Notes under the pieces: model-generated
The model's input: only the letters and a program-made list of their open reading frames with translations
What the model was told of the DNA's origin: nothing
Databases searched by the model: none
Assembly: GCA_040285855.1 (NCBI GenBank)
Contig: JAUFOQ010000017.1
Span: 434,001-498,000 of the forward strand
DNA from: Eukaryota sp. GEM-RC1
Taxonomy: Eukaryota
Reading direction: 5' to 3'
Length of the DNA stretch: 64,000 bases
Position numbers and translations under genes: made by a program
In this document: positions 6,839 to 33,222 of the stretch, piece by piece
Layout: every line of letters begins with the position of its first letter
Numbering within the stretch: position 1 is the first letter of the stretch

Positions 6839-9800
6839 ATGAAATTGCTCCGGATATATCTTCCCCATCGTTTCAAAATGCCATTCTCTTCCCCCAATAC
6901 AACATATAGGGATAACATGCTCGTAAAGAAGAGTCATGCCTTGAACTATTGTTGTTGTTGTTCTCCTCCCGTTGTTGAAGCGAAGTCCTCTCTTTCTACG
7001 CCCCCTTCCCCCAATACAACATATAGGGATAACATGCTCGTAAAGAAGAGTCATGCCTTGAACTATTGTTGTTGTTGTTCTCCTCCCGTTGTTGAAGCGA
7101 AGTCCTCTCTTTCTACGCCCCCTTCCCCCAATACAACATATAGGGATAACATGCTCGTAAAGAAGAGTCATGCCTTGAACTATTGTTGTTGTTGTTCTCC
7201 TCCCGTTGTTGAAGCGAAGTCCTCTCTTTCTACGCCCCCTTCCCCCAATACAACATATAGGGATAACATGCTCGTAAAGAAGAGTCATGCCTTGAACTAT
7301 TGTTGTTTTGTACGTGTTACTGAATCTAATGCCTCTCCATCCCATAGTTGGTTAAGAAATCTCACAATGGACGGTGATGTAGAGTCAAATCCCGGTCCAT
7401 TTCCACCCTCCGCTCACTCAGGCTGTGCATTTATTTCACATGAGTCTGTAATCCATCCTGTGAAGAACATTACAGGACATCGTATATGTACTTGCTTGGA
7501 ACACTATCACCTGAATGCTTCACAGTCTGTTCCAGAAGCAATGACTGATCGTGATCCCATTTCTTTTACTGAATGTAAGTCTCAACTAGACAATGCTCTT
7601 GCTCATTTTGATCTACCAATGAAAAGACTTTCTGTTAAAAATATTTATGATTACATTACATCCTTCTTTGAATCTCTGATTGCCCCAGAAGTCGATCATG
7701 TTTTTGTTGAGTTTCTAGAATATCATAATGAAGTTTTCACCTCCATTGACTTGCCGTCCCTGAAAGTTTTACCATCGCAACAACTTCTACAATTTTCTGC
7801 ACAAAAACGTTTGACAATTGATAAACAATGTTCAAGTTACGCCATTTGTAATCAATGTATGCTCCCCCGACAGCCTGGTATACTTCCACAACAGCATGAT
7901 TCGACCAGGCCCGTCCAATGCTGTTTAACCGCTCATACTCTTGATTTCTCGAAATTCATTCGCGTTGTAAATCCTGCCTGTTGTCTTTCGTTAACAACAA
8001 TGTTGACGATAGCACTAACACTGTGTCATCAGTATTTGCAAAGATCTAAATTTTTTAAAGATACCTTTCCAACGCCAGATTCTCTTTCCCCATTCACAGT
8101 TGATTCAGCAAGAGAAGTAAAAACTTGGCTGCGAGATCTGACCCCACCAAAACATTTTAACAAAAATTACTTGGAAAAACTACTCAATGAAATTGTAGAA
8201 TATGCTGAAGCTGCCGATGGCCAAGCTGTTCTTTCAGAACAAACAACTGACGAAGCTGATGAATATGAACAAGTACAGGATTTTAATAATACATCTATTG
8301 ATATGTCTGTAAGAATTGAAAACTATGCTTCCCGATTACTCAATGTTGATGCAAAGTTACAAGATACCTGGATTTTTCGATCACTCTATCGCTTTTATGT
8401 CTTTGCCAAGACATATTTATTTTCAAATGAAACTGATCAAGAGAATTACCGAAATCAACAAATTTCTTCAATTTATTTGTTGGTATTTATGCTAGGTTAT
8501 CAAAGTTACATTATTTCCACTTCAGAATTTGAAAATTGTTTTGAACCCTTTGTAAATCTAATGAACTTCCCATTTGTTTTCATTAGCTATATATTCAATG
8601 GAACAACACATGAAGAAGTTGTTGAACAAGCAATTAAAGATGCTTTGAAATATAAGACAGAGAAAGCCAAAGTTATTGATTTATTACAAGATGTTGAAGA
8701 AACACCCGAAGATCTTACCGAAATTCTCCTTGATGTTAATGCTGTTGATGCTATTGAACCAATTGAGGTAAACCGTCATGATACTAATTTCGATGATCTT
8801 ATGACTGAGCTGATGGATTTAAAATGCGACCTTATTACTCAAATTACTCCAATTATCATCACTCACTGGAAACAATATGCTAGTAGACACAATGTAGACC
8901 ATTTCGCATTGTCTAGTTTGATGAATGTTCTATTTCATGCTCAACGAGATCATAAATTGTCCTTTGTCTCGACTTCTACTGGAAAGAATAGTTTTACTGA
9001 ACTATTAAAGCATTTAATCAAGTGTTATTGTAATTCTGATCGGAGTTATGATTTACCCTATATGATCACTGGTTCAACTGGATCAGGAAAATCTACACTG
9101 TCACCTGTTATTTTTGCGCTTACTTTTTTTAGCAAAGTCATTGTTTCCCAACCAACGGTACCTTCGGCAATCTTTTTGTCTGAATTTCTTAACTCCTTAA
9201 CTAGACCTCGACTGGGTAGTAAATTTATTTACGATTACCCCATTGCTGGATATCACTGTGGTGGTGGGGTATACAATTTTTCAGACAATACTTTGGTTCA
9301 TTATCAAACAACTGGTTTAACTCTCATGTTGTTGATGAATCAGCATTCATTTGTTTCTACTTACAAAGTCGTCATTGTGGATGAAGTTCATGACAGAACT
9401 ATAGATGTCGATCTGTTACTCACAGTAATGAAAATTAATTTAAAAAACTCGGGCATTATACGTGGTTTGTCATCCGCAACTATTGGATCAACAACTGCTG
9501 AACTTAACCCAGTTTTTAAACACTTTGCTCCCTGATAATCAATGGACAGAGACTGATTTACTTAAAGAACAACAAAACCTTATGTTTGACACTGGTCAAT
9601 TCTCAAGAGTCCTGAACGTTTTCGACTTTAAGAATTTCGAAACTAATGACTGGTATTCAAAACTTACTGAAGGATTTCCCCCTCGATTTCGAGAAGCTGT
9701 CTGTGATCATCAACATGATTTTCGTGCAGAAGTGGTAAATTATAAAAAACACTTTGAATCTAAAGTAGATCAGAGACTTCACCCGTCGATTATTAACTCA

Positions 9801-9938
9801 GACGCACTCCTGCAATTGATAATTGTTATTTACAAAATTGTTGTCAAATACTTTGTACTAACAAAACTTCATACAAGACAGTCAGATGTTCCAGGTATAA
9901 CATTAATTGTTTTTTTACCTGAAAAATGTTCCTGTTGA
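6839..9938 (+). CDS. Polyprotein: repeat leader - 2A peptide - unknown domain - DEVH/DEAH-RHA-type SF2 helicase; frameshift near 9530, truncated after motif IV
   Basis: WLRNLTMDGDVESNPGP at 7349-7399; helicase motifs ITGSTGSGKST (I), VSQPT (Ia), YQTTG (Ib), VIVDEVHDR (II), SSATI (III), LIVFLP (IV, in ORF 9462-9938). Motifs V/VI are absent because hAT sequence begins there. Confidence 0.8.
6889..7307 (+). repeat. About 3.6 identical tandem copies of a 117-bp (39-aa) unit in the polyprotein leader
   Basis: CCCCCAATAC anchors at 6891, 7008, 7125 and 7242. Confidence 0.95.
7349..7399 (+). other. 2A-like (StopGo) ribosomal skipping peptide WLRNLTMDGDVESNPG|P
   Basis: Exact match to the D(V/I)ExNPGP consensus, with a typical 'LTxxGD' upstream context. 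Confidence 0.85.
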
Positions 9939-12093
9939 TTGCATTTTGCAATTATTGCAATAACACTGTATTGCAGTATTGCAATACAGTATTGCAACTG
10001 GTTCGAATATTGCAGTACGATATTGCATGTTGTTTCGTTATTGCAGTTATTGTAAGCAATACTCAGCCAATTGCCGAAACCGTTTTATTGTCATTTTAGT
10101 AGTGTGGTGTACTTAAAGCATATATTAAAAAATTAGCTGGTGTTGTGAATATCAGTTTATAAAACAACAGTAAGATGATTATCTTGAAGAGACGAATTTT
10201 GTCAGCTAAATTTCTCTTTGTATGACCCTGCGAGTAAAAGAAACAAATTCTGAACCAACTCCGGCACAACGATCGAGGGCATATTTTACCGAACTCGATA
10301 CTGAAACAGCTGAGGTTCAAAACTTTCTCAGCAAATCACCAGTAAGAGATCGAGATGATGTTGAAGTATGGAAATGTAGATGTGGTGTTTTTCGTACTAG
10401 AAAGCCGAACAGTGGCTGGTCGAATCTCTCATCCCATGTTGTATCAGAACATGTTGATTGGAGAACGGAAACATGGCAATTGCTTAGAGAAGCGGACTCA
10501 AATCAAGATATCTCAAGGATCTTTATTCCATGCAAAACGAAGCGTTACTATTCTTGGTTGGACTGGGTTGTTAGTGAAGGCCTACCCTTTTCAGTTGTTG
10601 AATCTGAAGTTACTCGTTGCTACACCAATCTCCAACCTATCTGTTTCAACACGTTTGTCGACCTCTTTGACTGCCTTAAAGAACATATGTATCATCAGTT
10701 GGAATCTCTACTTGGGTCATGCTTTGCGCTCATTATCGATGCTTGGAAAAGTCCGTCCACAAATCTTCATTATCTCGGAATCTTTGCCATGAATCGTTCT
10801 CTCTCATCCCCTGTCTTTCTATCACTGTTGCCCTTTGAGGCTGAAGCTGGCTCCACTGTCTTCGATAGAATGTTTGGCACAGATGCAGTGATAAACTTGA
10901 TTGAACATTCTCTTGTAATGTTCAACAAATCCTGGCAATGGTTGCTTGTATCGTAGCAGACAATTGTCCGACAATGAAAGCCGTAGCCACCAGAATTTCG
11001 TGTGGATTTGTAGGCTGCGCTTCTCATCGGTTTCAGTTAGGAGTACGGCAGTTCACTTCTCATTTAGACACTGTCTTCAGAAAAATCAACACTATTATGA
11101 AACTGCTTTCTGAACCAAAAAGGGCAACTGTTCTGAACGGTTTCACGAAATTAAAGCCCAAAAAGCGGAATGTCACTAGATGGCACTCGACTGAAGCAAT
11201 GGTTAGACGCTATATAGAACTGAAGGATTCCATTGTCAAGATGATTGTTGAAGCTGCAGATCAAGAATTGTTGCAATATTTGCCATCCTCTTCTAACCAG
11301 TTCTTCTACAAGCATTGAATGATCTTGAAAATCTTGCATTTGTGAGTTTACAACTCCAACGAGAGGATATTGATATGCTAAGTGTACAAAGATTGTTTGC
11401 TTCCACTATTGATGTATACTGTCAAGAAAACGAAAATCCAGAGCTCAAGGAACACCTGACATATCCTGCCTCTTTACGTGCCAGATATCCTGAAAACCAG
11501 GTTCACTTTGAAACGGCAGTTCTCAAACTGCTTCGTAGAGGCGAATGTTTAACAGAAGATGAAAAGAAATGGGTCCAGTGTTTCATTGAACACCCAAATG
11601 CTGAGCCAAGAGCAGGCGAGAGACGCCTTGCCTCCATAAAAGACGTTTTCAGTCAGAAAACAATCGAAGAAGGTTCAACTTATCAAGATCTTTCCTGGAT
11701 TCCTCCTACATCTAACGTCGTTGAAAGACTTTTTAGTCGTGTCCGATTTATTCAAGGATTGAATCGTCATTCTTTGAGTCAAGAACGTCTCGAAACTCAA
11801 GTGTTTTTGTCCATCAATAGACATCATTGGGATATGCAATTGGTAGCCAAAATGATTGTTGATCGAAAACTAGATTTGTAATCAATAGATTGATATAATG
11901 GTATGCATGTCGAATTTATTGAAACATAAATGTAGCACTTAAGCAGCAAATTTGTTAAAAAATATTGCAGTACAGTATTGCAAATGTACCAATTATTGCA
12001 ATACAGTATTGCAACTAAACCAGTTATTGCAATACAGTATTGCAGCAACAAAAATTTTCACAATATATTGCAATTATTTATTGAAGAGCCCTG
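9938..12093 (+). mobile_element. hAT DNA transposon; right end ...GAGCCCTG at 12093 (alternative end ...AACATCCCTG at 12297); left end degenerate
   Basis: Transposase ORFs plus subterminal TATTGCA repeats on both sides, including the palindrome TTGCAATAC-A-GTATTGCAA at 9979-9997 and 11996-12014. Confidence 0.8.
10222..11881 (+). CDS. hAT transposase in three ORF pieces (2 frameshifts)
   Basis: BED-like finger WKCRCG..GWSNLSSHVVSEH; LIIDAW (D), IVADNC (D), GCASH (CxxH), VTRWHS, PPTSNVVERLFS (E) and dimerisation domain. Confidence 0.9.
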
Positions 12094-12502
12094 ATATAGA
12101 GTATAGAATATACATCAACACGTGTTCTTTTTGATGCTAGTGCATGTGTAGATCATGTACATATACTACTGAGTGACTCAATTTCTCAAAATGGTTCAGA
12201 ATGTATCTGGTTATTGCTTACAATAACTACACATTTGTTTGCAATACTATTTTGCACGAGGCCATTGCAAAATGCAATTACCGTTTGAACATCCCTGAGT
12301 TAAACCCCATCTGATAAAAAATAAAACACATCAATAAACATCTAACTTTTCTCATTGCACTCAGATCAACTTAGCTAATAGTTGTTTGTGATACTCGAGC
12401 AATGATTTAATAATAAAGCTTATTTAGTACCACTGTTACAAAAAATACATTTTGACAGTGTTCAACTAAACGATAATGTATATTTAATTCACATACACAT
12501 GT

Positions 12503-12640
12503 ACCAGGTTTTTGGGTTTGAACCTAAACCGTTTTTTACCAAACCTAGCTGAACCTAAACCCATTTTTGGAAAACCAAACCAAACCTAAACCAGGTTCGG
12601 GGTTTGAAACTATTTTGAATCCCAAACCTGCACAGTCCTA
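12503..12640. mobile_element. Right-end fragment of a hAT-type MITE with AAACC/GAACCTAAAC subterminal repeats
   Basis: Clustered AAACC repeats ending in ...GCACAGTCCTA (reverse complement starts TAGG); partner end not found. Confidence 0.45.
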
Positions 12641-12790
12641 CTAGTAGCTACAACACTTACTTCAAATGCCCTACTTCTGAACGAACCATTAAAAAAAAAT
12701 TCAGGCAATTTCAGGATCTACACTGATTGTAAATTTTTCCCCAACATGACCTAGACTAAAAATGTGACAACAACAAATACAGGTATTTAA

Positions 12791-15478
12791 TTAATTTAAA
12801 TATACATCAAAAACAATAACTTTAGAAAAACCCAGTTTCTTTTCTTTTCGTACCTGTTTCCACTTGGGAAGGTTGTCAAAATCGACTCTCTTAATGCCAA
12901 ATTCCTTTTCAAAAGCCTCATCTGAAAGATACACCTCCAACTGAGTCCGATCAAAACCCAGGGGTAAGTCTAAAAGTTTGCTTTTAATCTTGGCTGGGAT
13001 TGAATCCAACTTCTGCTGATGCTCCTCCTCTGGCGACAGAGTAGTAGAAGAAGAAGAAGGTTCATCATTAGTAGTTTCAACATTACCATCAGCTTGTTTC
13101 TTCTTCAGAGGATCAACAAATACAGCTTTCTTCTTCTGTGCTAACTCAGCAAACTCAGGAGTATTACTATTAGCAACAGATGACGATGACTTCTTCAATG
13201 GATCAACAAACTCAGACGTCTTCCTATCAGCCAACTTAGCAAACTCTGGCCTCTTGCTCTTAGCTTCTTCTCTCATTTTAGCCTTCCTGGCTTCATAAGG
13301 ATCTTCAAACTCCTCCAATGTCTTCTCCTGCCATCCAATAAAGTGACAAGTAAACAACGAGGGCTCCTTGCCTTGTTCAACAGTAATAATTGGAGTACCA
13401 GGATCTCTCCCGTCATCAACACACTCAATATACTTTTGAGCGCTTTCAAAACTCTTCTTAGCTTCATTCTCGTTAGCTCCACTTCCTACCCACACGAAAA
13501 CAGTGTGGAAAGTATCCATAACATAAGCATCATCTGATAACAAATCATCCTGACTGAAGTTATGAACTTCTTCAATTCTCCAGGCACCCAGAGCATCAGA
13601 ACAATGGAACAATCTCGGCTCAAAGTCTCCTTGAAGTTCTAAATCCTTACCAGAGGCGTACTCTTCCTTTCCACCTAGGCAGTCCCAGAACTCCCCTGGT
13701 TCTTCTTCTTCCTTGATCACGATCTTCTGTTTTCCTTCAGCAAAGACGTCTGCGACCTTCAAGGCAATGTCTTGCTCACTGTCGTTACAACCAGATCCCA
13801 TCCAAACGAAGACTTTTCCATTAACAGTATCATCGACAACGAAGGAATCGCCAGAATTTAAATTTTTAGAAGTTGTTGGAACTTGAACAGCTCTGGTGTC
13901 AAACTCAGTTGTACCTCGCACGTGATATAACGCAACCGGTTCTCTTTCCTCTTCTGGAGTATCCCAGTCACCCAATCTAACAATCATTTTACCATCCCAA
14001 ATGTTGATGAAATGAGCAGGTTCCTTGTTCTGACAAACACGAACCTGGGTAGCAGTACCAGACCTCTCGTCATCTAATGAAACAGCAAGGAATGCAGAGG
14101 CAGTGGTTTCGTCACGTGATGAGTTGCGTCCTTGGTAGTAGTAAATGAATTCAGTCAGCCTGTTCTTTAAAGTGAATGATAGTAGAACGAGGTAGGAATC
14201 TCCAGAATAGAACTTTCCGTGGTCTTCTTCAGGAACTGGTACTTTACGGAGGTTTTGAATTCTCCAGACTTCAATTTTCTTACTTCCTTCGTCCATTTTT
14301 AAAATTTGTTGTTCTTGTTCCTGTCGTTTTTTAGTCATTACACTTTCAATATCAATATCATCCAATTGAATCTTCTCTCCTTGCCCCATTAACTTCTGCA
14401 GATTATTTCTTGAAAAGTCAACATTCCTAATAACTGGCTTCCCCCACTGTTTGAAATGATCCTTAAACAGCGGAGTCTCACCATCTTGAATTACTCTAGT
14501 AATTGGAGTCCACACAGGTCGTCCGTGGTCAACCAAATACTTCTCAGCATACGTCATGGCTCCCATCTTCTCTTCAGAAGTACTGCCTTTACCTACCCAG
14601 ACGAATAGCTCATTTCCAGTATCTAAAATATAGCAATCATCACCGTTTAGCAGGTCCTTAGTCAAACCCTTCTCACACATTTCTACTTGTTCACACTTTA
14701 GCTCTCCAGAAGCATCAGACACTAAGTAGAGTTTATCATCCTGAGCTTGTTCAGCTTCCTCATCACAACCACCTTCTTCAGCAGAAAGGATTTCAGAGCG
14801 ATCGCCTTCAAGAGCAGCCCAGAAAGGTTCAGCATCGGACTCGTCATCATTCTGACCTTCGTCTAAGAGAATAACTTCAGGTCTGGAACCTCGTTCTTGA
14901 TCCTTGATTTTACAGGTTACGTCTAGACCTTTCGCTCGTTCTAGACGGCTGGATTCTTTACCATTCCATTGAAAGAGAGTGAGACCGAGGTCGAGGACAA
15001 AGACATCACCACAATTGAGAGAAGAAGTTTTGAGAGGGACTTGTTTGCAGCGGATTCTGCGTTTGCCCTTGAGATGGAGTAGACGGGGTTCATAGACATC
15101 GCGTTCAATCTTGTTGAAAGCAGAGACGGACATTTCACCATCTAGGTATTCGATGCCATCAGTCCAGAGAGAGAGAAAGAGGGAGGATTCATGTTGTTGT
15201 ACTTCACGATGTTGAACAGCGTCGCCGCCTAATATGTCGTCAAGTTCGACAGTTTTGAGAGCGGAAGCACCACGTTCATCCTGAGTACTCTCCTCGCCTT
15301 GCCAATAGAAGAGATGACGCTCTTTACGGTTGGAGTGGTTAAATAGCACAATGTAGCAGTCACCGGTATAGAACTGGCCATATTCGGTAGAGTCAACATC
15401 AACTACATCAAAGTTATCGATTCTCCAAACTCTAGTGCCTGGTTCTCTTGAAACATCATGGAAACCAAAAGTAGACAT
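12791..15478 (-). CDS. Villin (six gelsolin repeats plus headpiece)
   Basis: VWRIDNF, GQFYTGDCYIVL, HREVQQHES, SLNCGDVFVLD, GKFYSGDSYLVL, LNSGDSFV, PRLFHCS, C-terminal headpiece YLSDEAF...F..LPKWKQ. Confidence 0.95.
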   Translation of the reverse strand: MSTFGFHDVSREPGTRVWRIDNFDVVDVDSTEYGQFYTGDCYIVLFNHSNRKERHLFYWQGEESTQDERGASALKTVELDDILGGDAVQHREVQQHESSLFLSLWTDGIEYLDGEMSVSAFNKIERDVYEPRLLHLKGKRRIRCKQVPLKTSSLNCGDVFVLDLGLTLFQWNGKESSRLERAKGLDVTCKIKDQERGSRPEVILLDEGQNDDESDAEPFWAALEGDRSEILSAEEGGCDEEAEQAQDDKLYLVSDASGELKCEQVEMCEKGLTKDLLNGDDCYILDTGNELFVWVGKGSTSEEKMGAMTYAEKYLVDHGRPVWTPITRVIQDGETPLFKDHFKQWGKPVIRNVDFSRNNLQKLMGQGEKIQLDDIDIESVMTKKRQEQEQQILKMDEGSKKIEVWRIQNLRKVPVPEEDHGKFYSGDSYLVLLSFTLKNRLTEFIYYYQGRNSSRDETTASAFLAVSLDDERSGTATQVRVCQNKEPAHFINIWDGKMIVRLGDWDTPEEEREPVALYHVRGTTEFDTRAVQVPTTSKNLNSGDSFVVDDTVNGKVFVWMGSGCNDSEQDIALKVADVFAEGKQKIVIKEEEEPGEFWDCLGGKEEYASGKDLELQGDFEPRLFHCSDALGAWRIEEVHNFSQDDLLSDDAYVMDTFHTVFVWVGSGANENEAKKSFESAQKYIECVDDGRDPGTPIITVEQGKEPSLFTCHFIGWQEKTLEEFEDPYEARKAKMREEAKSKRPEFAKLADRKTSEFVDPLKKSSSSVANSNTPEFAELAQKKKAVFVDPLKKKQADGNVETTNDEPSSSSTTLSPEEEHQQKLDSIPAKIKSKLLDLPLGFDRTQLEVYLSDEAFEKEFGIKRVDFDNLPKWKQVRKEKKLGFSKVIVFDVYLN

Positions 15479-17229
15479 GGGTAATAGATTTTGATCTAAT
15501 CAATAAAACGTTACCATCACTTTTCTATGTTACTTTCACTGAACTCGACTTTTATTGCGAATGTTATATGCCAGAATGGTCTGACCGAGGTTGGATTTGA
15601 TCTTGAGTGGTAATCATTACAATCAAAGGAGCAACTGCCGTTTTGATCTGGGGATGAGCTATTGACAGAATAGGTTCAATAAAAGAAGCGGACACTTTAA
15701 AGTGTGGGAGAGCTGAGTGGGTTAATGGCATAGTGAAGAAAAGCTCTGTTTGCGTCCATTAACTCTTTTGGGCTTTATTCACTTTTATCCTCCAAATGAC
15801 AGCCAAGACTGTTACAAACAACGAAAGCTAACTAAAATATTAACCAATCATTAAACTCGTCATCAAATAAGGTCTTCGTAAGTCTCAATAATCATGACCA
15901 TCGTTAAATCAAACTATTTCCCTGAAGCTAGTGTTTGTCGAGTATATACAATTACGGTTCAAAGTCAGAAACTTCATTTTATCATTGTTTGATGGAACTC
16001 TAATTTATCTTGTATTACAGACTTGTCAGGGAGGTGTCCTTAGATAGTTTAGACCACGGTTTAACCCTCCTCTAACACATGTATTGAAACTGATCAGCAT
16101 GGTAAAGGGAGTAACAAATTATCACAGATTTTGCATCAAGCCTTCCAGTCTTGTTTTTTGGAAATATAGATAATGGAAAACAGGCAATTTTGTAATGAAG
16201 CTACCCTAAGATATGTAATAAAGAGTAGACATATCTGATGTTACATTGTTGCAGTAGTGCAATATTTTCAATAATTTTAATATTTTAAAGAATTACAATA
16301 TCCATTGGCGATCTTTCAGAATTACAATATGTATTTTGTGGCTAAAATACATTGTTATTTATTGTAACATTGTTTTCACACCCCTGGTTTTATATCAGGA
16401 CTTGTAATCGTTGAAAGAATTAGTAGTTCAAATTTGATTGCAACAATAAATCAACATGTACAACCCAAGCATACGGTCTACAATGCTTGTGTTAGTACCT
16501 TGCTTGTATTAGGACCTCGATTATGTGTAGACGTTAATCCTTCGTTGCAGGTCAAGAATTCTTATTGATTCTAAACAAGAAGAAGTTGTGATTTCAACCT
16601 TGAGCAATGATAACTGGTTAACGCAATTGTTTGATTCTGAGGAACTAGATTTTAAAGGCTCTAAAACAAGGACAATTGATCTCAGAAATTTACACAATTT
16701 CCGAATTTAATTCATCACACGGCTGAAAATAGGTACAAGCCACAGAATTACTGTAGATAAAGCGAAAACAAACAATTTGACTCCAATTTCTAGTACTTTG
16801 GTCTTCGTAAACAGCACTATGCATTATAGTTTCAGAATTGCAAACGTCATGTTTCAGCACTATAACTACGTTTGTACACACGGTATTATTTCTGGCAATC
16901 TTAATGAGAAACAAGGTTCTGCAATTCTGCACCAATGTGATTTACGGTATTTTGGAGACGTGAAGTTATCATACAACGTGCAAATTGTTTAGATCAATTT
17001 AATTCACTGCTCTAGAGGTGGTTTTAATGGTAAGATATCCAAAAATATGAAAAACTGGAGATGAACGTTCAGTCGATAGCAAAAATAATGTTTTGCTCAG
17101 ATTAATGCAGATTACTTGAAGTAAGTCATTGCTTTGCATGTCAAGCAACCAATATGATGACGTTGCGATGAATGGTGCTGAAATGCAGTCGAAGGAATCT
17201 TGAACTCTTTCTCTCTCCAACTTCCAAAC

Positions 17230-18948: not shown

Positions 18949-21900
18949 CTACAGACCAAAAGGATCGTATTTCTTAGGCTGTTGCCTTGGAGACTCACCA
19001 TCCTTCTTAAAAGATCCGTTATCCAAATACTTTAGTTCAAAATCCAACACAAAATGAAAAGAAAAGAAAGACAATGGTTCAACAATTCCAATTAGTCGGT
19101 CCAAAGCATCAGAAACTTTACCAACACTACTAGCATTATTGAAGTAGTATCGATGTACAGCAGTTTCATCAGAATAGATCTCCCTCAAAACCCCACATAA
19201 CATCTTCTTTTCTAAACAATCGCAAATGAGAGCACGGAAACGTTGAGCATCGTCAGTAAATTCAGAAAAGTTTCGGATTCTATTAACACTAGTAGCTAAC
19301 AGGGGGTAATTTGACCAATTATACTCAGAAAAGAACTTCCAAAGGGAGTTTCTGTAAATAATTCTAACAGTTGGTTTTAGACCAAGTGATAATAAACTGC
19401 TCAATCCAGCACAAATCCCGCCTCTCACCAACGACGACATTGCCACGTCGTGGGGCTCACATCCACGTGTTGATGACGTGGAAGATTCAAGATAGGACAC
19501 TAACTTCGTTACTTTCTGTTGAATCTCTTTGAAGGGGTTTTCTAAATTAGTCATTGCACCAGACTCAGACTCATTATAGTTATTAGTAGTCTTCATTACT
19601 GAAACATCCTGATTTGACTTGAATTTAACTGGCAACTGAAACGTGAACTGAGCGTCCAGCATCTCAGCAACTGCCACGTAGTGACCGACAGGAGAGTTAC
19701 GGATGGGAGCGTCCTCGGTCCAAAAAGTAGCAATCAAGTTGACGTCAGCAGCGAGAGCTCTCATTAAGACTGCCAGTCTTGAGGTGTTGAGAGCTATTCT
19801 AAGGAGTAACACCGATCGAAGACGAGTGATTTCGAACTTAGGCATTCGTGGTAAATCTAAAGAAGCAGCTTCCGAAACTAGCTTTATGATTGCAGGCATT
19901 TTAGACTGGGAGATGGCATACCACAAGTCAACAGAAGTCAACAGACCTTGCCCTTTGATTCCAGTTGACAACGCACCATGCAATAGCTGTACAATCTGAT
20001 GAGGTACCGGGTTAGACCCCGGGATGGCCATCTTGCAGAGGAGGAATTAGGAAGTCCTTGTACTGAGTGTAACTCTGCTACCTTCTGTAACAACTCATAA
20101 GCAGATTGATCAGGTTCTGAAGAAGGCTGTGGAGAAAGACTCAAACGTGATGGTGACGATTTCTTTTGAGATATTAATGAGTTTTGAGCTTCTTGTAAGG
20201 AGGTTTCAATCTTGGATGGATTCCTGTTCTTCTCTGAATAAACTTCCCACATTAGGGATACCGGATCTCTTCTAAGCATTAGAGGAACCCCACAGGTTGG
20301 TTCTTGAGGTACTGTGACAACGGTGGCTGCTGCACGACGACATACAGGGAAACGAGAGACGTTTAGGAGGGGTTTACAGTCAGGAGCTAACTGCCATCCA
20401 TGACGTGTAGGGACGAGCTCAATATCTGAGACACGGACTGTGGAGATCGCATTAGGAAGGGTACCTTTACGTCCTCTTTTTGAGCTGAAGAAACCTGTCA
20501 CGTCAGCAGGATCGACAAGGTCAATCACAATGCCAGTGTCCTGAGAGTCTTCGATGATCTCTACTCGATGACGATGAGAACGTTGAGTTCGGGTAGGTTC
20601 GATTGAAGTGGTTTTTCTTAGGGGTTTTTTGGCGGCAGGTTCGATTGGAGCAGTAGTAACACGTGGTTTTGAAGGATTATCTGTTTTGATTGAGTGTGAT
20701 TGGGATCCAATTTTAGGAGTTTCAACAGGAATTTGAATGGGTTTCGAAGATTCCTTTGGAATTTGAGTTTGTGATTGAATCGCTTTTGCAACAGGAATTT
20801 CAACTGGTTTTGAAGCTGTTCGTGAAATTTTGACTTTATCTTGAGTTGGTTTTGCAACAGGAAGTTCAACTAATCTCGAAGATTCCTTTGGAATTTGAGT
20901 TTGTGATTGAACCGGTTTTGCGACAGGAATTTCAACTGGTTTTGAAGCTGTTCGTGAAGTTTTGACGTTTTCTTGAGTTGGTTTTGCAACAGGAAGTTCA
21001 ACTAATCTCGAAGATTCCTTTGGAATTTGAGTTTGTGATTGAACTGGGTTTTCAACAGGAATTTCAACTGGTTTTGAAGCTGTTCGTGAAGTTTTGACTT
21101 TATCTTGAGTTGGTTTTTCAACAGGAATTTCAATTGGTCTCGAAGATTCTTTTGGAATTTGACTGTGTGATTGAACCGGGTTTTCAACAGGAATTTCAAC
21201 TGGTTTTGAAGCTGTTCGTGGAGTTTTGACTTTATCTTGAGTTGTTTTTTCAACAGGAATTTCAATTGGTCTCGAAGATTCTTTTGGAATTTGAGTTTGT
21301 GATTGAACCGGGTTTTCAACAGGAATTTCAACTGGTTTTGAAGCTGTTCGTGGACTTTTGACTTTATCTTGAGTTGTTTTTTCAACAGGAATTTCAATTG
21401 GCCTCGAAGATTCTTTTGGAATTTGAGTTTGTGATTGAACCGGGTTTTCAACAGGAATTTCAACTGGTTTTGAAGCTGTTCGTGGACTTTTGACTTTATC
21501 TTGAGTTGTTTTTTCAACAGGAATTTCAATTGGCCTCGAAGATTCTTTTGGAATTTGAGTTTGTGATTGAACCGGGTTTTCAACAGGAATTTCAACTGGT
21601 TTTGAAGCTGTTGGTGAAGTTTTGACTTTATCTTGAGTTGTTTTTTCAACAGGAATTTCAATTGGTCTCGAAGATTCTTTTGGAATTTGAGTTTGTGATT
21701 GAACCGGGTTTTCAACAGGAATTTCAACTGGTTTTGAAGCTGTTCGTGGAGTTTTGACTTTATCTTGAGTTGTTTTTTCAACAGGAATTTCAATTGGCCT
21801 CGAAGATTCTTTTGGAATTTGAGTTTGTGATTGAACCGGGTTTTCAACAGGAATTTCAACTGGTTTTGAAGCTGTTGGTGAAGTTTTGACTTTATCTTGA

Positions 21901-22517
21901 GTTGGTTTTTCAACAGGAACTTCAATTGGTCTCGATGATTCCTTCGGACTAACAGCCTGGTCTTCAACCGAGTCCAGTGGTTTTGCATAAGAGCCATTGA
22001 GAGGAGTTAGCTCACCATAGCTCCTAGTAAATGAGGAAGTAAGAGAATCAAAAGATCCCGAAGTACTTTGATAGGATAAAACAGGAGAGGGAGGTCGCTG
22101 TATTGGTTCAGATAATCTTAAGAGCTCCTCGTCAGCAATACCAGACTTTGTTGGATCAGAGTTGTTCTGAGCAGCAGCCTCTTCTTTAAGTAAAGATTGA
22201 GCCCGCTTTAGTGCACGTATCCATGATGCTGATTCACTTGGAGTACGAGCAAGAAGATGGAAGGTTTTGTGCGGAACGGCAATTTCGAAACGATCACCAT
22301 TACGAGAAAATGTTGAGTTTAAAAGTGGAATAGATCCTATAGGATCATCTTCTGCTGTAGAGCTGGAATAGTAGTTTAGACAATAGCCCTCAAGGCGAAA
22401 GAATCTTCTAGAATAGGTCCCAAAGAAGCCATCCTTAAGTTTCAGAAACCCATGTAGGACAACTGAAGAAAGAGACATATGAGTATCGAGATTAAGTCTT
22501 GAAAATTTGAAGGACAA
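18949..22517 (-). CDS. PH-domain, proline-rich repeat, RUN-domain protein (frameshift near 20030)
   Basis: N-terminal PH (GFLKLK..RRFFRL..LNYY..PIGSIPL..W..AL); C-terminal RUN-like segments (L..GLK...W.F, RFRALICDCLE..L, ..YY...). Confidence 0.75.
20720..21940 (-). repeat. Coding minisatellite, 132-bp (44-aa) unit made of two 22-aa halves, about 9 copies
   Basis: PVEIPVENPVQSQTQIPKESSR / PIEIPVEKTTQDKVKTPRTASK repeated. Confidence 0.95.
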
Positions 22518-22796
22518 TAAAATGAATCAATGATCGAGAAGTCTACATGTACATACTATGTATAGTAGTAGTTTTAACAATACTTCTAATCCAGCAAAAC
22601 TTGAAATCAACAAAAGCAAAATGATTCATGTAGTACATTATTCATCATTGAAACACATATATTAATGATGACACTTGTACTGTTAATAACTAAACCTGAA
22701 GAAGTTTATTGTTTATGATTGTGGAAATCGAACTATATAGACCATAAATTCAGCATGACAGATGGTACAGACTAATAATTGTATGTCGTTTAAAAC

Positions 22797-23532
22797 TTAT
22801 TGAGCTGGGACAGCTGTGGGAAAAGTGATGTAAACCTTGCTTTCTGGTTCACCGACGTGCTCAGTTTCCTTGGGTTCATAGAAGGTAATTTTGTCGGGTA
22901 GAACTGAAGAGACTTGGGGATTCTTAGGTTGGGGAAGCATAATGGAAACCTTGATACCAAGGACACCTTGCTTCAAAAGAACATGACGGGTGGCAGTTTC
23001 AACATGATCGATGTTTGGTTGACCGGTCTTGATCATATATCCAGATCCGAACTTAAGACTTTTGGCACGAGCACCACGGACTTTACCGGAGATCATGATC
23101 TCACATCCCTTACCACCAGCCTCAGTGATTTGTCTGATGACACCATAACAGGCCTTACGGACAGCGGTTCCACCGAGAATTTTGAACTTGATGGATTCGG
23201 CCTGAGCAGCGGCACAGAGTCCACGTTCCTCCACACGTTTGGCGAAAAGAGCTAGGCGTCCTTCTTCGAAACCCCATCTCTTGGAGATAATGGAGGTGAG
23301 CTCACGGATACGGCGAGCACCTTCACCCAAAACTTCGGAAGTCTTAGTAGCGTGAATGACAACTTCGGTTCTTAGGGGAGTCTGTCTAACATTAAGACCA
23401 GCAAACCCGGCACTGGCCAATTCACGTTCAAGAAACTCATTGAGTTCGGCGAAAAAATACCGTCTGAAACAAACTAAGATAAGGTGATCGCAGGGAGAAA
23501 GATACCTTTTTCTTCTTGTTGATAACGTTCAT
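22797..23532 (-). CDS. RPS3: 40S ribosomal protein S3 (uS3); exon 1 23506-23532, 32-nt intron 23474-23505, 1-nt homopolymer deletion near 23455
   Basis: [14 protein letters not shown](IFF)[69 protein letters not shown]...TTAG intron. Confidence 0.97.
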
Positions 23533-23753
23533 GCAAATTCAAAAGAGGGAGGTGAGCAAAAGGAAGGGTTCATTTTTCTGCTTCTGTGATCGTTACCTTT
23601 GTTCACTTCTTTGTCTTGAACCCATACACTTCAGATTATCTTGCATTCTATCTTGTTATGATGGTCTTTAATGTTATAGCCATTGAACTCCAATATTACA
23701 AAACAAAATCAGTTTTATCACAAATGACTTAAGAACAATGTGATTACATGTAG

Positions 23754-24928
23754 CTATTCATTCAATAACATCGCAAACTGCTGAGCTGAGTCTAAATCGG
23801 AACATTGGGCTGAGAATTCTAGAGTTTTGGCTAACTGTTTGACACTACTGACATTGCTTTGTGAGATCAATACTGCCAGGAAGTTCCATTCACTATCCTG
23901 AAATGACAGAGGATCTGCATTGACAAAAACCGATGCTATCCGGTCTATCAGTGATACAAGTGTTGATTCTTGTACTTCTTCTTCAAATAGACTACAAACA
24001 CATCGAAGTAACTCAAACAGACTCGAATATCGGACCATTGACAAGATGTGAGACGATGTAAGAGACAATACAACCATCAGCACACGTGTTCGAGCAAAAG
24101 TCACTTGATTAACAAACCGACAGTCACTCATAACTATCTCAATTTGATCAACCAATGTCTGATCTACTGTTTCACTGATTGCATTGTTTAAATAATTGAA
24201 CATCAACGCAGACACAATTGAAATAGAAAGTACAATAGAGAAGCAATAATCACTCTCGAGAGGTGTTTCCAACTTCAGCAAGTCTTTCAAAAGGTTCTGG
24301 CCTTTTTGTCATTTAAAAGCAGGGCAAGAACAGAAGTGTCAAAACCAAAATCTAACTTTTTGACAAAAGAATCCAGGGGAAGTCGAAGCTGTTTTGCTAC
24401 ACTGTTATAAAGTTTCAGACGATTCTCAGAAGTAGGTTGTTCCTTTTCTAATAACAAATAATCACAAATACCTAAATGATATGAGTAAACCTTTTCTATA
24501 AGTAAATTCAGAAAATAATGTGACGAAAGGCCATGTTTTTGAACAGGTGGATTAAAATCAGGGAGTACAGGACGAACACCAGAACCTGATAGTGGAATAC
24601 ATCCTAAAGTCTTTGGAGGTAATTTAACAAAGGAAACAGTATCTTTGACCTTTGGTTTTGTGTATAATGTAGGCATGTGCTTAGGAGGAGGGTGACTCAT
24701 TTCAAAATAGTGATCTTCAACATAAGGATCATTCATAACAACAGAACACGATCGGGATGATAGGATGAAGTGATAATCAGCTTCTGTAAAGATGTGATGA
24801 GTTTGCAAATCAGATAAGGTTCTGGTTTTGGGTTTGGGTTTGGGATGTTGTACGGTGAGTGACGCTTCAAACTCGTCTACAAAGACAGCATCACCGGTGG
24901 CAAGAAGATCAGAAATAGAAGGTTGCAT
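23754..24928 (-). CDS. PAT1: PAT1-like mRNA decapping factor (frameshift near 24290)
   Basis: IFTEADYHFI...NDPYVEDHYF, TLGCIPLS...RP and LLIEKVYSYHLGICDY resemble conserved Pat1 blocks. Confidence 0.6.
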
Positions 24929-25666
24929 CTATTCTTAAAGATTTAGGAAAAATCCGGTTTTATTTTACTATTGCAAACAATATACCCTACTAGATAGTAC
25001 ATGTACAGTACAGTATGTGTAAAACTGCTGTAAGTACTACAACAATGTCATGGTATTGGCAAAGGATATACCAGTCATAATACCTCTACATCATATTCAC
25101 GTCTCGAACCAAAGAGAGGGTTTACAATCGGATTAAACAACCTGTTCATTGGCTGAAAAGTGAAGATGAATGACAATGTTACACTCTAATATTTGATTAA
25201 AACTCTTTCCGATATTAATGAAGAATTTTACACACTCTGAACAAAATTTTGCAAATTATCAAAATCCAGAAAATTAAATGCCAAAATTACGGTACAGATC
25301 TAAAGGCAAACGAATGGTGTACACGAGAATTTATTGTCGCTCTATATTCAAAATAGGTAATCAATGTTCGTGAGCTGAAAGTATTTGTTCAAAATTACTG
25401 ACTCGAATGTTTCAATTTCAATGTCAAATTTTTAACATGTCTATCTATCGGTTCATATCCAAACTCGTCGAGTTGTTACAGAAATTGTGAAACTGTAAGT
25501 TATTAAGAAACACAATACAAGCATACCACTACCCTTTTTTACGTATTGTTTTGTGAGCACGATTGTACTTGAATCATCAACAAGTTAGATTTATCTAAAT
25601 TTCCCAAAAAAACAATAATCATTACTAATACAATACACATATTATCAAACTTAAATTCAAAACCCC

Positions 25667-26884
25667 TTATTCATAATCAGACTGGGCTTTCTCCGCTTGT
25701 TTCCTCTTAGATTCCTCCGCAAACAAAAACAACTCCCATAGACACTCCACACTCATGGAGTCAAAATCAATCTCAATCTCTTCATCTTCATTATCAGCAT
25801 TGATGTATCTTTCAACAATCTCAATAACAGGTTCGCTATCATCAAGATCCCCAAGGTATTCCTTAAGATCACGTTTTTCTTCAAAAGTCAATTGTCTCAT
25901 ACCAACTGGTTTAGGCTTAGCCGGTTCAGCTGGCTGCGTTGCTGGCAGAGGAGTTTGAGGTTCTACTGGAGCCTGAGTCGGGGGTTGGACCGGGGGCTGA
26001 GTGGCTGGCATAGGGGTACCTGGAAGAGGTACCTCCACTGGCTTAGACTCAACAGGTTTAGTCTGTTGAGGCTGGGGAGAAGAGATGGGATGAGGGAGGG
26101 AAACTGAAGTGGGAGCTGGAACCACGGCCTTCAGCATATCTTCGAATCTGTTTTTCAAATATAGTGCTATATTATGAACAGGGTGATCTTTGGGATTGAA
26201 AGTGAGAGAGTTTTCAAAGGTCTGGCGACAGTCATCAGCAAACTCCTCTATTGATCTGTAGTAACCGTTATGAAGACGGTTCCTCACTGTTCCAAGATCC
26301 ATGGGATTGATCACTCTATCGTAATAGTCAGGGGCTCCACAGGTATTAGGGTCTACAGGAGCGCTGAAGAGCTGACCACCACTTGGGTCAGCAACGAGAG
26401 TATCAACAATGGTAAGACAAGACTTCATGATAGAGTCTGTGCTTGGTCGTTGACCACCTGGACGAGGGTGACTGTCAGGGATGGGAATGGGGATATAAGA
26501 CTTGGGGGGAACAGGGGTTCGTTTTTGACGAGCAGCGGGTGACTTCTTCTTTGTGGTTGAACGAGAAGTAGACTTTGGAGCTCTGGTTTTGTGAGCAGGG
26601 GTATAGGGACTGCTTTGGTAGGAAGCATATGATGGTTGAGCAACAGGAGTCATGGAAGTTGGGTCTTGTACAGAAGGAATACTAGTTTGTAGATACTTGA
26701 GACAGGAAATATAACGTTGAAGTAGGTTACGTTTCTGTTCTACGGATAGTGAATCCCAGTCAGGACGGTTTCTAGGGAAAACCAAGTCCTCAGAAGATAG
26801 TGTTTGAGGGAGAAAGTCACTTCGAGAGCGCTTCAATTCGGGTGCATCAAAGGTTCCCAGTCTCTTGTTACCTACAGAGTGCAT
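25667..26884 (-). CDS. Bromodomain plus ET-domain (BET/GTE-like) protein
   Basis: LFSAPVDP..CGAPDYYDRVINPMDLGTV..RL..GYY....FADD..QTFEN..TFN; ET: LTFEEKRDL...EIEIDFDSMS..CLWEL. Confidence 0.92.
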   Translation of the reverse strand: MHSVGNKRLGTFDAPELKRSRSDFLPQTLSSEDLVFPRNRPDWDSLSVEQKRNLLQRYISCLKYLQTSIPSVQDPTSMTPVAQPSYASYQSSPYTPAHKTRAPKSTSRSTTKKKSPAARQKRTPVPPKSYIPIPIPDSHPRPGGQRPSTDSIMKSCLTIVDTLVADPSGGQLFSAPVDPNTCGAPDYYDRVINPMDLGTVRNRLHNGYYRSIEEFADDCRQTFENSLTFNPKDHPVHNIALYLKNRFEDMLKAVVPAPTSVSLPHPISSPQPQQTKPVESKPVEVPLPGTPMPATQPPVQPPTQAPVEPQTPLPATQPAEPAKPKPVGMRQLTFEEKRDLKEYLGDLDDSEPVIEIVERYINADNEDEEIEIDFDSMSVECLWELFLFAEESKRKQAEKAQSDYE

Positions 26885-26958
26885 ATAAAGAATGCTTGAG
26901 GAGATGATGAGTTTTGGCTTTGAAACAAAATTCGACCATCTTCACTTCTTTGAAAGTT

Positions 26959-28197
26959 ATGACTGACTCAAAAATCCAAGAACTACAAGCACTTGAAAAG
27001 AAACATCGCTTAGCGGAGGATAAGGACAACACTCGAGCTGTGGCAATAGAACTTTTAGATGTTTGTCGCAGCGTCAGTGACTCTCGTGCTCTTTCAGAAC
27101 TTACTACTCTTGTTAAAAAGCGTCTACAACAACCCGATACAATTACAGCAATTGTTCGTCATGTCCTGTCTTGGGCCGATGATTATTCGGAATCCGATCC
27201 ATCAACAGTCCCATTTAGGCAAAGCATCTTCTCTGTTGTACGTGAAGCCTCTGCAGGCAAATTAACAGTCGAAAGAGAACACGCTTTTGCCACTAAATCC
27301 CTTTCATTATTATTAGATCAACAAGGCAAGATCTCTGAAGCATCTTCTATCATTAAAGACTTTGCTCCCGAACAAATCGGAGCTCTTTCACGATCAGAAC
27401 GTATCGACATGATCCTCTTCCAGACCTCAACCTTTCTCAAATCTGATGATTTCGTCAGGGCTGAGATAGCATTCAGGAAGATCACCACAAGATCTCTTCA
27501 ACATGAAGAAGTCTCACCTGAACTGAGGGTTCGATTCTACTCCTTGGCTACTTCAATTGCCAATATCAAGAAGGAGTTGCTCACGGCTGCTGCTGCTTAC
27601 TTTGACCTCTACATTTCCTCTCTCACACTTCCTTCAGACTCTTCTCTTCATTCTCTGGCAGAAGGATCGCTTTCCTTTGCTGCACGGTATTGCCTAATGT
27701 CAGAGCTCTCTCCTGAACGTACCACTCTGATTGGAAGAATAATGGAGGCAGTTGTACTCAAGGAAGATCTCCCTTCAGAAGTTGACCTTCTTAAAACAAC
27801 TTTAGGATCAGAGCTAATCAATATCACAGCTACTGATGAACTTCCTGAGTCGTCTACAACTCAGCAGTTTTTCCCAAATTGGAAGTTGCTAGTCAAGGAG
27901 AGATTGATTGACCACAATATTACTGTCATTGCTAAGTTCTTTAGTCGCATTTCCTTTGATGATATTTCTTCTCTTGTTCAGTGTGATGTTTCAACCATGG
28001 AAGATCGTGTGTGTACATTGTTTGGTAATAATGTTATCTTTTGTAGAATTGATCGCTTAAAAGAGGAGATTTCGTTTAGAAAGGATCTTGATCCCGCATC
28101 TGAAGCTAATGAGTGGAGTATGTCGTTGATGAGTACGATTGACAAGTTAGAAAAGGCAGTTCATTTGATTGAAGTAGAGCAGAGTTTCAGCAAATAA
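26959..28197 (+). CDS. RPN5: 26S proteasome lid subunit RPN5/PSMD12
   Basis: LQALEKKHRLAED, LVKKRLQ, AGKLTVEREHA, C-terminal PCI domain (ERLIDHNITVIAKFFSRI, CRIDR). Confidence 0.92.
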   Translation: MTDSKIQELQALEKKHRLAEDKDNTRAVAIELLDVCRSVSDSRALSELTTLVKKRLQQPDTITAIVRHVLSWADDYSESDPSTVPFRQSIFSVVREASAGKLTVEREHAFATKSLSLLLDQQGKISEASSIIKDFAPEQIGALSRSERIDMILFQTSTFLKSDDFVRAEIAFRKITTRSLQHEEVSPELRVRFYSLATSIANIKKELLTAAAAYFDLYISSLTLPSDSSLHSLAEGSLSFAARYCLMSELSPERTTLIGRIMEAVVLKEDLPSEVDLLKTTLGSELINITATDELPESSTTQQFFPNWKLLVKERLIDHNITVIAKFFSRISFDDISSLVQCDVSTMEDRVCTLFGNNVIFCRIDRLKEEISFRKDLDPASEANEWSMSLMSTIDKLEKAVHLIEVEQSFSK

Positions 28198-28252
28198 ATA
28201 GCTTGTATATGCAATTGTGTTGTCTAACACCATTAATAATTGTGTATATATA

Positions 28253-28561
28253 TTATGATATATATTTAATGATATTAATTTTATACTTCATATGATGAAT
28301 ATATGAAGTAATGATTTCTAGACCTGAAGAAGAGTCGAAGCTATTGTCGTCCTTGCAAACAAGTTCAGCAAATGGTGAAAGAATTCCAAAAGCCAGAATG
28401 AGAAGAAGCTCGTATTCCTTAAATCTAACAGCAGCATAGAAGACAACAATAAGACCTGTAGCATCAGTCAGTGCAGATATAGCGAACACCTTCAAGAAAG
28501 AAAGTAAGTCAATCAAAGCGTGTTAGGACTAGCAAGACGCTGATACCTGAGAAAGCTGCAT
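28253..28561 (-). CDS. Small membrane protein, Vps55/endospanin-like N-terminal half, apparently truncated; 57-nt intron 28490-28546
   Basis: ATG CAG CTT TCT CAG | GTATCA...TTGAAG | GTG TTC GCT gives MQLSQVFAISALTDATGLIVVFYAAV...LSPFAELVCKDDNSFDSSSG; two TM segments; the intron carries an in-frame stop. Confidence 0.4.
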
Positions 28562-28657
28562 CAGTAGCAGTAAAAAGTGAAAAGAAAACTGGGTAAAATC
28601 AAAATCCCCTATGAAACGGAATCCTGCTGAGAGGAAAGTGATGAACAATCAATAACA

Positions 28658-29311
28658 ATGTCGACAGTGACTTATTTCCGTCTCATGACTCCATCAGGTT
28701 TGTTGATGTCTCACACAGTAAGAGGTTCCAATCCTCCTCGGCTGGACGTTTTGTATCCAGTTGAGACTGAAAGTTCCATCCTTTCAGTTATGTGTTCAGG
28801 AGGTTCCAATCCTCCTAACACTATAAGAGGTTCCAATCTTCCTCGGCTGGATGTTTTGTATCCAGTTGAGACTGAAAGTTCCGTCCTTTCAGTTATGTGT
28901 TCAGGAGGTTCCAATCCTCCTCGGCTGGATGTTTCGTATCCAGTTGAGACTGAAAGTTCCGTCCTTTCAGTTATGAATTTGGGTGGGGACTACGGCCCTA
29001 ACCCAGGATTAACAACTCAGGGCAGTTGCAGAGAAGAGGCTAACAGCTTGATATCTGCAACTCCTGATGAGTTAATACCGCAGTGGTCCGTGTCTTGTTG
29101 TAAAACTCGACAAAAGCAATTCACTTTTGATTTGGAGAATAAACACAATTTCAAATTTTGTTTGATTCATTTGTTTGTGAAAGATTTAACCAACGATGGT
29201 GATATCGAGTCGAATCCCGGACCGGTATCATTTAACTCACATGAATTTGAAGACATAACATTGTTGTCTGAATGGGAATGGTTAGAGCTATTCCATCTTC
29301 TTTTTCCATAA
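28658..29311 (+). CDS. Polyprotein segment 1: repeat leader, 2A peptide and start of the Ulp1-like domain
   Basis: 26-aa repeats, FVKDLTNDGDIESNPGP, then EDITLLSEWEWLE; the frame changes at the T-run near 29301-29305. Confidence 0.75.
   Translation: MSTVTYFRLMTPSGLLMSHTVRGSNPPRLDVLYPVETESSILSVMCSGGSNPPNTIRGSNLPRLDVLYPVETESSVLSVMCSGGSNPPRLDVSYPVETESSVLSVMNLGGDYGPNPGLTTQGSCREEANSLISATPDELIPQWSVSCCKTRQKQFTFDLENKHNFKFCLIHLFVKDLTNDGDIESNPGPVSFNSHEFEDITLLSEWEWLELFHLLFP
28722..28975 (+). repeat. Three 78-bp units (last one partial) plus a 27-bp insert; each unit contains three short hairpins
   Basis: GAGGTTCC anchors at 28722, 28800, 28827 and 28905; stems GAGG/CCTC, CTGGA/TCCAG, ACTGAAAG/CTTTCAGT. 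Confidence 0.9.
29174..29224 (+). other. 2A-like (StopGo) peptide FVKDLTNDGDIESNPG|P
   Basis: Exact D(V/I)ExNPGP consensus with 'DLTxxGD' context. Confidence 0.85.
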
Positions 29312-33180: not shown

Positions 33181-33222
33181 CTTTTTGACAGAATTTTCCA
33201 ACCTTAAACCTCTAAACTCTCT

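Follow-up and report, generated by a model that had tools for sequence, protein, structure and literature searches.

Why two genes with unrelated products should open in the same way is the question raised by positions 434,001 to 498,000 of contig JAUFOQ010000017.1 of Eukaryota sp. GEM-RC1, a eukaryotic, gene-dense stretch of 64,000 nucleotides (the window) that contains several mobile elements. At each of two loci, a long leader with in-frame tandem repeats is followed by a 2A peptide and then by an enzyme, a DEAH-type helicase at locus 1 and a Fanzor1 nuclease at locus 2. The answer that we favor, with confidence modestly above even, is that these are two unrelated, multi-copy and likely mobile elements in which 2A is predicted to release the leader and so to uncouple it from the enzyme. 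All features of the two loci described below lie on the plus strand.

Translation placed both leaders where an earlier note on the window had put them. Counted from the first ATG, leader 1 (6839..7396) has 186 residues and leader 2 (28658..29221) has 188, and each ends with the Gly of a related 2A core, GDVESNPG↓P at locus 1 (7373..7399, preceded by WLRNLTMD) and GDIESNPG↓P at locus 2 (29198..29224, preceded by FVKDLTND), both of which conform to (G/H)D(V/I)ExNPG↓P. No other strict 2A motif occurs in the six frames of the window, and 100 base shuffles of the window produced none. In the deposited gene models, translation begins further downstream, at the ATGs at 6878 and 28685, giving leaders of 173 and 179 residues. 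Beyond the 2A Pro, the open frame continues for 712 residues at locus 1 and for 29 residues in six of six copies of locus 2.

Tandem Repeats Finder (TRF) reports an array of 117 bp × 3.6 with 99% matches in leader 1 (6888..7311), and overlapping periods of 105 bp × 1.9 and 78 bp × 1.9 in leader 2 (28719..28975), where three 105-bp-type units are present, one with a 27-bp deletion. The lengths of 117, 105 and 27 bp are all divisible by three, and the 2A frame is the only stop-free plus-strand frame across the arrays. The earlier description of in-frame, near-identical units of 117 and 78 bp thus holds for the first figure; the unit of the locus 2 family is 105 bp (35 residues), and the 78-bp period of the window copy stems from the deletion, in which 27 bp were lost between two identical short segments. 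Nor are the leaders built entirely of repeats, as had been thought, since the arrays fill 76% of leader 1 and 46% of leader 2. At 6743..6775, before the first in-frame ATG of locus 1, lies a degenerate partial 117-bp unit, whose local alignment score of 28 was matched by none of 300 shuffles. The two repeats are as dissimilar as the note had judged: local alignment of unit 1 with unit 2 scored below the shuffle mean on both strands, and similarity between the units or between the leaders was rejected. Between the two loci, no DNA or protein similarity was found outside a 29-nt 2A core (23/29 nt identical), which is their sole match, and no common ends were found. Because nothing is shared but the 2A, the loci do not look like one element with swapped cargo.

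Copies of both loci occur elsewhere on record under the name Eukaryota sp. GEM-RC1; these siblings were compared as protein records, not as sibling DNA. Locus 1 has near-identical copies (94–99.5% identity) on three contigs, which suggests recent mobility or duplication. In two of them (99.0–99.5% identity) the 2A Gly lies at residues 134 and 95, compared with 173 in the window model, corresponding to one and two 39-residue units fewer; the third is a fragment without leader. Locus 2 has five siblings on four contigs, with leaders of 153, 153, 188 and 188 residues from the MTPSG start, against 179 in the window, and in the model of sibling P0179 a different frame leads into the array, while the same 2A is kept. 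Since the leaders of siblings vary in steps of whole repeat units (95/134/173 residues at locus 1, 153/179/188 at locus 2), the nearly equal leader lengths in the window are a matter of chance, a caveat that the earlier note had itself raised. Its companion idea, a common leader length of about 187 residues, fails: siblings vary, the leader of the relative P0005 has 110 residues and those of the P0119 group have 108–119, and across families 2A lies 95–197 residues from the start, as annotated or predicted.

The layout recurs in a further lineage. P0005, a 37%-identical paralog of the post-2A region of locus 1, carries an unrelated 26-residue repeat in about three copies, followed by DLTNDGDVEANPGP at residue 110; it ends in a histidine phosphatase, which may reflect a fusion in the gene model. 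Three mutually unrelated repeats thus precede 2A in three lineages. As a control, a degenerate 2A pattern gave 61 loci in metagenome and viral contigs, of which 42 were distinct outside 2As and 39 had at least 500 nt upstream; a long-unit array was present upstream in 0/39 and weak 21–24-bp pairs in 3/39. Because many of these control loci look viral, the window is the fairer background, and there a long-unit array lies no more than 560 nt upstream of about 4% of positions. The proposal of a recurrent module therefore survives in part, as an association seen more often than expected by chance; it does not survive as a rule, because the annotated leaders of P0119, P0159 and P0161 lack repeats. 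The 2A motif itself is present in P0005, P0119 and P0159, with an NLGP variant in P0161.

Locus 2 is likely a transposase-less Fanzor1 element, judging from its sequence. Its order is hairpin array, possible relic 2A, 2A, protease, zinc knuckle, exonuclease-like domain, Fanzor1, folded 3' stretch and then an RPB9-like host gene. The possible relic, GDYGPNPGL (28985..29011), is in frame, degenerate, 71 codons upstream of the 2A and kept in all six copies; found post hoc, it ranks 4 among 77,149 stop-free 9-mers, with a chance of about 0.005 per leader. A second relic candidate in leader 1 (RVTESNASP) was rejected, with a chance of about 0.09 per leader. The Ulp1/SENP-like C48 protease (29222..29715; PF02902, E = 1.5e-9) begins in the 2A frame and continues in another; its GTHW, (F)MDS and KQDNGYDCG motifs align with the Ulp1 and SENP8 structures, and the His-Asp-Cys triad with its oxyanion Gln appears intact by sequence. 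It is followed by a degenerate CX2CX4YX4C motif (29947..29988), read directly from the sequence and without a family match, which we take to be a zinc knuckle, and by a PolB-type 3'-5' exonuclease-like domain (30124..30748; PF03104, E = 0.04) with partly degenerate catalytic motifs, ExoI being unrecognizable and ExoII and ExoIII altered.

The Fanzor1 nuclease (30761..33139) is interrupted by short off-frame stretches. It covers positions 9–656 of the 674 of a purpose-built Fanzor profile, matches PF07282, and resembles the structures of SpuFz1 (E = 1e-10) and PpFz1 (E = 2e-10); these are its only PDB matches at E ≤ 0.01, which argues for Fanzor1 over Fanzor2 or TnpB. The C-terminal D...TS-x-x-C4 zinc finger...RD pattern of Fanzor1 is present as GDP (in a shifted frame), NEFRTSLQC, CKKC and NRD. 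Around the Fanzor stop and beyond it, a stretch predicted to fold (33110..33205, with a putative end) is a candidate ωRNA scaffold and element 3' end, with folding z-scores of −2.9 for 33000–33230 and −1.9 for 33100–33210. Locus 2 would thus make a protease-knuckle-exonuclease-Fanzor protein, provided that the frame break shared by all copies after the 2A is spliced or bypassed. A tRNA-Gln gene (33815–33886, minus strand) lies about 600 bp past the putative 3' end.

An intact relative is P0119, from a four-member cluster whose record is named Eukaryota sp. TZLM3-RCL. Searching 1.84 billion representatives with HMMER gave 1356 relatives; P0119 is the only one of the best 150, many of them fragments, to carry a 2A, and in the 77 whose sequence extends to the start of the profile the N-terminal extension has a median of 4 residues and a maximum of 74. 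A weak, word-based search brought up one distant long Fanzor. P0119 is an intact open reading frame (ORF) of 1473 residues that reads through beyond its 2A Pro, in the order leader, WRRNLVLDGDVEANPGP, Ser-rich stretch, PolB exonuclease (PF03104, E = 5e-13) and Fanzor1, without the protease; its ExoI, ExoII and ExoIII motifs read as FDVET, GYNCDKFD and YCVND, and P0159 is similarly intact. The window family is colinear with P0119 across the exonuclease-Fanzor junction (E = 7e-11), and when the exonuclease part is compared alone, 1 of 1000 shuffles reaches the score. The window Fanzor groups with four skoliomonad-named Fanzors in a tree of full-length sequences with 28 rows (six chosen ones, and 22 drawn from 68 relatives of 600–760 residues); the grouping has a Shimodaira-Hasegawa-like approximate likelihood-ratio test (SH-aLRT) value of 98, obtained by a quick method and with long branches. 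No viral relative of P0119 was found. Two further Fanzor1 families of that lineage, P0025 and P0135, also skoliomonad-named, are on record only as C-terminal pieces.

How much of the frame disruption at locus 2 is real bears on whether the element could be expressed. The organisms whose names the sibling records bear are free-living metamonads, and their long-read assemblies are rich in repeats (PMC11316075). The breaks at ~30490 and 31250–31310 are absent from siblings P0184 and P0185, whose frames stay open there, so that these upstream breaks are private to the window copy; both sit in A/T runs, which are common here (0.7 per 60 nt). Breaks of the same type strike a ribosomal protein S3-like gene, the RPB9-like gene and a transposase otherwise 99–100% identical to intact copies, and for this reason the private breaks are likely assembly indels. 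The break after the 2A stands apart because it is common to all six copies. The sole GT-AG pair of 20–70 nt there, a candidate 41-nt intron (29281..29321), would restore the frame, but 51% of random stretches offer such a pair, so that it is weak evidence. We give an intron a little less than an even chance; a real break or frameshift is distinctly less probable, and a systematic T-run error slightly less probable again. The S3-like gene (minus strand) has a 32-nt GT-AG intron (23474–23505) and a frame break at a T run, the RPB9-like gene (33217–33547) has one at an A run, and many host ORFs in the window look split, probably by assembly indels.

Locus 1 appears to be a separate, 3'-truncated family with a cellular-type DEAH helicase, whose element class we leave unassigned. 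Its 2A is followed by a region of ~550 residues with Cys/His clusters (7397..9040), the first ~460 of which are common to P0005 (36–37% identity). Pfam and other database searches matched this region to no family, and its AlphaFold model was unusable, with a predicted local distance difference test (pLDDT) score of 33. A Pfam PPIase_AIP match on P0001 was rejected as a repeat artifact (0 passing stretches). The first RecA domain of a DEAH/RHA-type helicase (9041..9487) comes next, with motifs I (GSGKST), II (DEAH-like, DEVH) and III (SAT) all present; its PDB matches are spliceosomal DEAH, Spindle-E and DHX36-type proteins (E = 3e-6 to 1e-5), and it is 32% identical (E = 5e-12) to the helicase gene at 42923–49981. 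Beyond this domain lies a frame break, also found in sibling P0004, and then a probable helicase continuation in another frame (9444..9938), without a database match, until the locus is cut at ~9938 by a multi-copy transposase element (9940..12093, ends approximate). Intact siblings of that transposase have 553–554 residues and are 99–100% identical to the window copy, which has two frame breaks; the element is presumably hAT-like by its motifs, a label that PDB and Pfam did not confirm, as Hermes matched at just E = 0.37 in PDB and the intact sibling had no match. A short stretch at 12100–12300 ends in a sequence resembling the terminal sequence of this element and is possibly a miniature derivative.

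In the mechanism that we propose, each element would open its long frame with a leader and a canonical 2A, and 2A skipping would release the leader during translation, so that the enzyme would always begin at the same Pro, whatever the leader length. Uncoupled in this way, the leader peptide would be nearly unconstrained apart from its open frame, and unrelated in-frame duplications could arise independently in leaders and then expand or contract. This reading accords with the near-identical copies that differ by whole in-frame units at both loci, with leaders and repeats that are unrelated between the loci while 2A is kept, and with the exonuclease-Fanzor junction common to locus 2 and P0119. 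A 2A of the W(V/I)RDL...GDVESNPGP type, which the locus 1 context resembles, is reported to be highly active (bioRxiv 10.64898/2026.09.24.754024), and N-terminal 2As are established in mobile-element ORFs (PMC3708506).

Several observations weigh against it. The 2A motif alone is insufficient, and several element 2As are inactive (PMC3708506). All six copies of locus 2 meet a stop 29 codons past the 2A, the protease of the window copy continuing in another frame, and a weak word-based search for a read-through protein of 397–2000 residues from leader 2 found none. Translation could also begin within the last unit, since every unit contains an ATG in frame. The case for mobility rests on copy number, because no terminal inverted repeats were present among the 25 longest pairs listed at locus 2 and no target duplications were found. 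Three relatives have the repeat-free annotated leaders noted above, and between P0119 and P0159 the annotated leader (88/90 identical) is no more diverged than the next 400 residues (378/400). A C-terminal tree of 48 rows was unresolved and did not join the window Fanzor to the P0119 group. Finally, neutral drift would not be expected to leave hairpins as ordered as those of array 2 (z = −6).

This last point leads to an alternative that we regard as possible but doubtful, namely that the arrays are primarily nucleic-acid control modules, either multimeric internal promoters or structured 5' RNA, with incidental translation and a 2A that strips off a junk peptide. Array 2 forms a chain of perfect hairpins, mostly with 7-nt loops beginning UUCC; folding z-scores were −6.0 for one unit and −6.1 for the region, beyond all 160 background windows (lowest −4.3). 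The four differences between units keep the pairing, three lying in loops and one changing G-C to G-U; compensatory changes are absent, with only three units to compare. The GGTTCCAATCC loops resemble the tRNA T-loop/B-box consensus, but the B-box-like matches all repeat a single motif, which has C at a position usually occupied by a purine, and neither an Rfam family nor a tRNA was matched in array 2. The degenerate unit upstream of the first ATG of locus 1 would fit a control module, whereas array 1 itself is unstructured (z = +0.3), and RNA structure there was rejected. Thus, the earlier suggestion that 5' RNA repeats matter gains support at locus 2 and none at locus 1, and the two arrays are not one RNA design. 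Within the favored reading, too, the array 2 unit probably has a nucleic-acid role, for example as a 5' promoter or RNA control module. The GGTTCCAATCC loops (28724–28917) translate as GSNP in the frame of the SNPGP of the 2A; a link to the origin of 2A is speculative.

Other explanations seem less probable still. It is unlikely that both loci are dead relics with unused 2As and leaders, their arrays being neutral slippage products of a repeat-rich genome. The several breaks in the window copy, the break common to six locus 2 copies, the degenerate exonuclease and knuckle motifs, the NLGP variant of P0161 and two other long-unit coding arrays in the window would all fit decay, but the upstream breaks are private to the window copy and at homopolymer runs, their recurrence in the S3-like, RPB9-like and transposase genes suggests assembly indels, all six copies keep an identical 2A core, and P0119 and P0159 are intact. 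We find it similarly improbable that locus 1 is an endogenized RNA-virus polyprotein, or an expanded host defense-type helicase family, rather than a transposon. A 2A joined to a superfamily-2 helicase is a virus-like layout, and no transposase or reverse transcriptase was seen at locus 1; 2A also occurs in cellular NLR-type genes (PMC13405545). Yet the helicase matches cellular DEAH proteins, no relatives of locus 1 were found in viral or prokaryotic contigs, and its copies lie on three contigs at 94–99.5% identity. The earlier note's idea of one element family with a fixed ~187-residue leader design and exchangeable cargo is very improbable. The related 2A contexts (23/29 nt) and the differing cargo within each family (P0005 versus P0001, P0119 versus locus 2) would suit it, and a shared 3' module is possible because the 3' part of locus 1 is missing. 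However, leader length varies among siblings, no similarity or shared ends were found outside the 29-nt core, and the likeness of the core follows from its amino-acid motif, similar 2As being found in unrelated contigs. What can be retained of the idea is that both loci are multi-copy and that cargo differs between relatives that keep the 2A, the Ulp1 protease and zinc knuckle of locus 2 being absent in P0119.

Two unrelated elements with a leader that 2A would release have partial precedents. 2A-bearing APE-type non-long-terminal-repeat retrotransposons (L1Tc/Ingi, Rex1, L2, CR1 and Crack) likewise place a 2A close to the beginning of one long ORF, where it parts a leader from the enzymes (PMC3708506, PMC13405545), and its proposed role in these long interspersed nuclear elements (LINEs) is to limit the downstream protein (Odon et al. 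2013, PMC3708506). The window loci differ in that neither has a reverse transcriptase or APE Pfam match (locus 1 being 3'-truncated), their leaders contain variable tandem arrays, a Fanzor1 or DEAH helicase lies downstream, and 2A lies at 95–197 residues across the families rather than at ~40–80 (PMC3708506). Like described Fanzor1 elements (PMC3627910, PMC10530073), locus 2 combines the RuvC/zinc-finger C-terminal motif, multiple copies and a folded 3' region with the lack of a transposase. Fanzor1 proteins vary in their N-terminal half and are found with many transposon partners (Bao and Jurka 2013, PMC3627910; Jiang et al. 2023, PMC10530073); locus 2 differs in having ~700 extra N-terminal residues with a 2A, an exonuclease-like domain and an optional protease, and no 2A, protease or exonuclease fusion is mentioned in the available parts of those two papers. 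Viral class A/B chimeric or tandem 2As (bioRxiv 10.64898/2026.09.24.754024) share the W-x-R-[DN]-L...GDVESNPGP form with locus 1 and P0119 and an upstream second motif with locus 2, but the locus 2 relic is degenerate and 71 codons away rather than back-to-back, and it lies in nuclear, multi-copy protist DNA. Back-to-back 2A motifs 21 residues apart do occur in a metagenome contig (L022, 867–907, minus strand). The 5' monomer arrays of mouse L1 and Dictyostelium TRE5-A reportedly act as internal promoters, and the window loci resemble them in having copy-number-variable tandem units in the 5' part; the window units differ in being kept in frame and followed by a 2A, with a putative promoter role.

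What appears to be new here, on sequence grounds, is the recurrent layout of repeat leader and 2A, together with a Fanzor1 lineage that has a 2A and an exonuclease-like fusion. 2A is rare in cellular genes (PMC12846837). Among the papers searched, we found no Fanzor with a 2A, protease or exonuclease, although survey supplements could list such proteins; we also found no StopGo in a DNA transposon laid out like the window's, no description of 2A with a tandem-repeat leader, and, among the papers listed, no natural use of 2A in Giardia or Trichomonas. The window 2A peptides were absent from the supplementary files of PMC13405545 examined, a set that is possibly incomplete. A bolder picture, which we hold only tentatively and at less than even probability, is that skoliomonad protists have a live Fanzor1 lineage built like viral polyproteins, in which the number of hairpin units in the leader array sets expression, the 2A works, a SUMO/NEDD8-type protease is optional and the RNA-guided nuclease is naturally fused to a 3'-5' exonuclease, and that several unrelated element families in one genome have taken up the same 2A cassette, giving a free N-terminal zone that repeatedly evolves repeats. 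If so, StopGo recoding, familiar from RNA viruses and LINEs, would also operate in an element with an RNA-guided nuclease, and in a protist group for which our searches turned up no natural 2A. P0119 and P0159 would represent an intact natural exonuclease-Fanzor fusion, comparable with engineered exonuclease-nuclease fusions, and the sibling copies that differ just in leader unit number would offer a natural test of whether 2A serves uncoupling or down-regulation.

Further features of the window lie outside these two loci. In-frame long-unit arrays without a 2A occur at 20720–21948 (132 bp × 9.3, in a long ORF) and at 13100–13264 (90 bp × 1.8, in a villin-like gene). The helicase gene at 42923–49981 encodes a 2352-residue DEAH protein with Cys-rich RING-like stretches, two WWE domains and a stretch that, by its motif, is presumably PARP-like. 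A frame-broken PIF1 helicase gene (1263–3786, minus strand) lies between two direct arrays of a 14-bp satellite (845–1250 and 4548–4780) and is possibly a mobile element. A small element at 34678–35485 has GGGGCTCTATTCGGTA-type repeats on both sides and TGACCTTGACC arrays inside. Finally, a long inverted repeat at 53217–57888, with arms of 703 bp at 99% (53582–54284 and 56409–57111) and shorter flanking arms, is possibly an element with long terminal inverted repeats.

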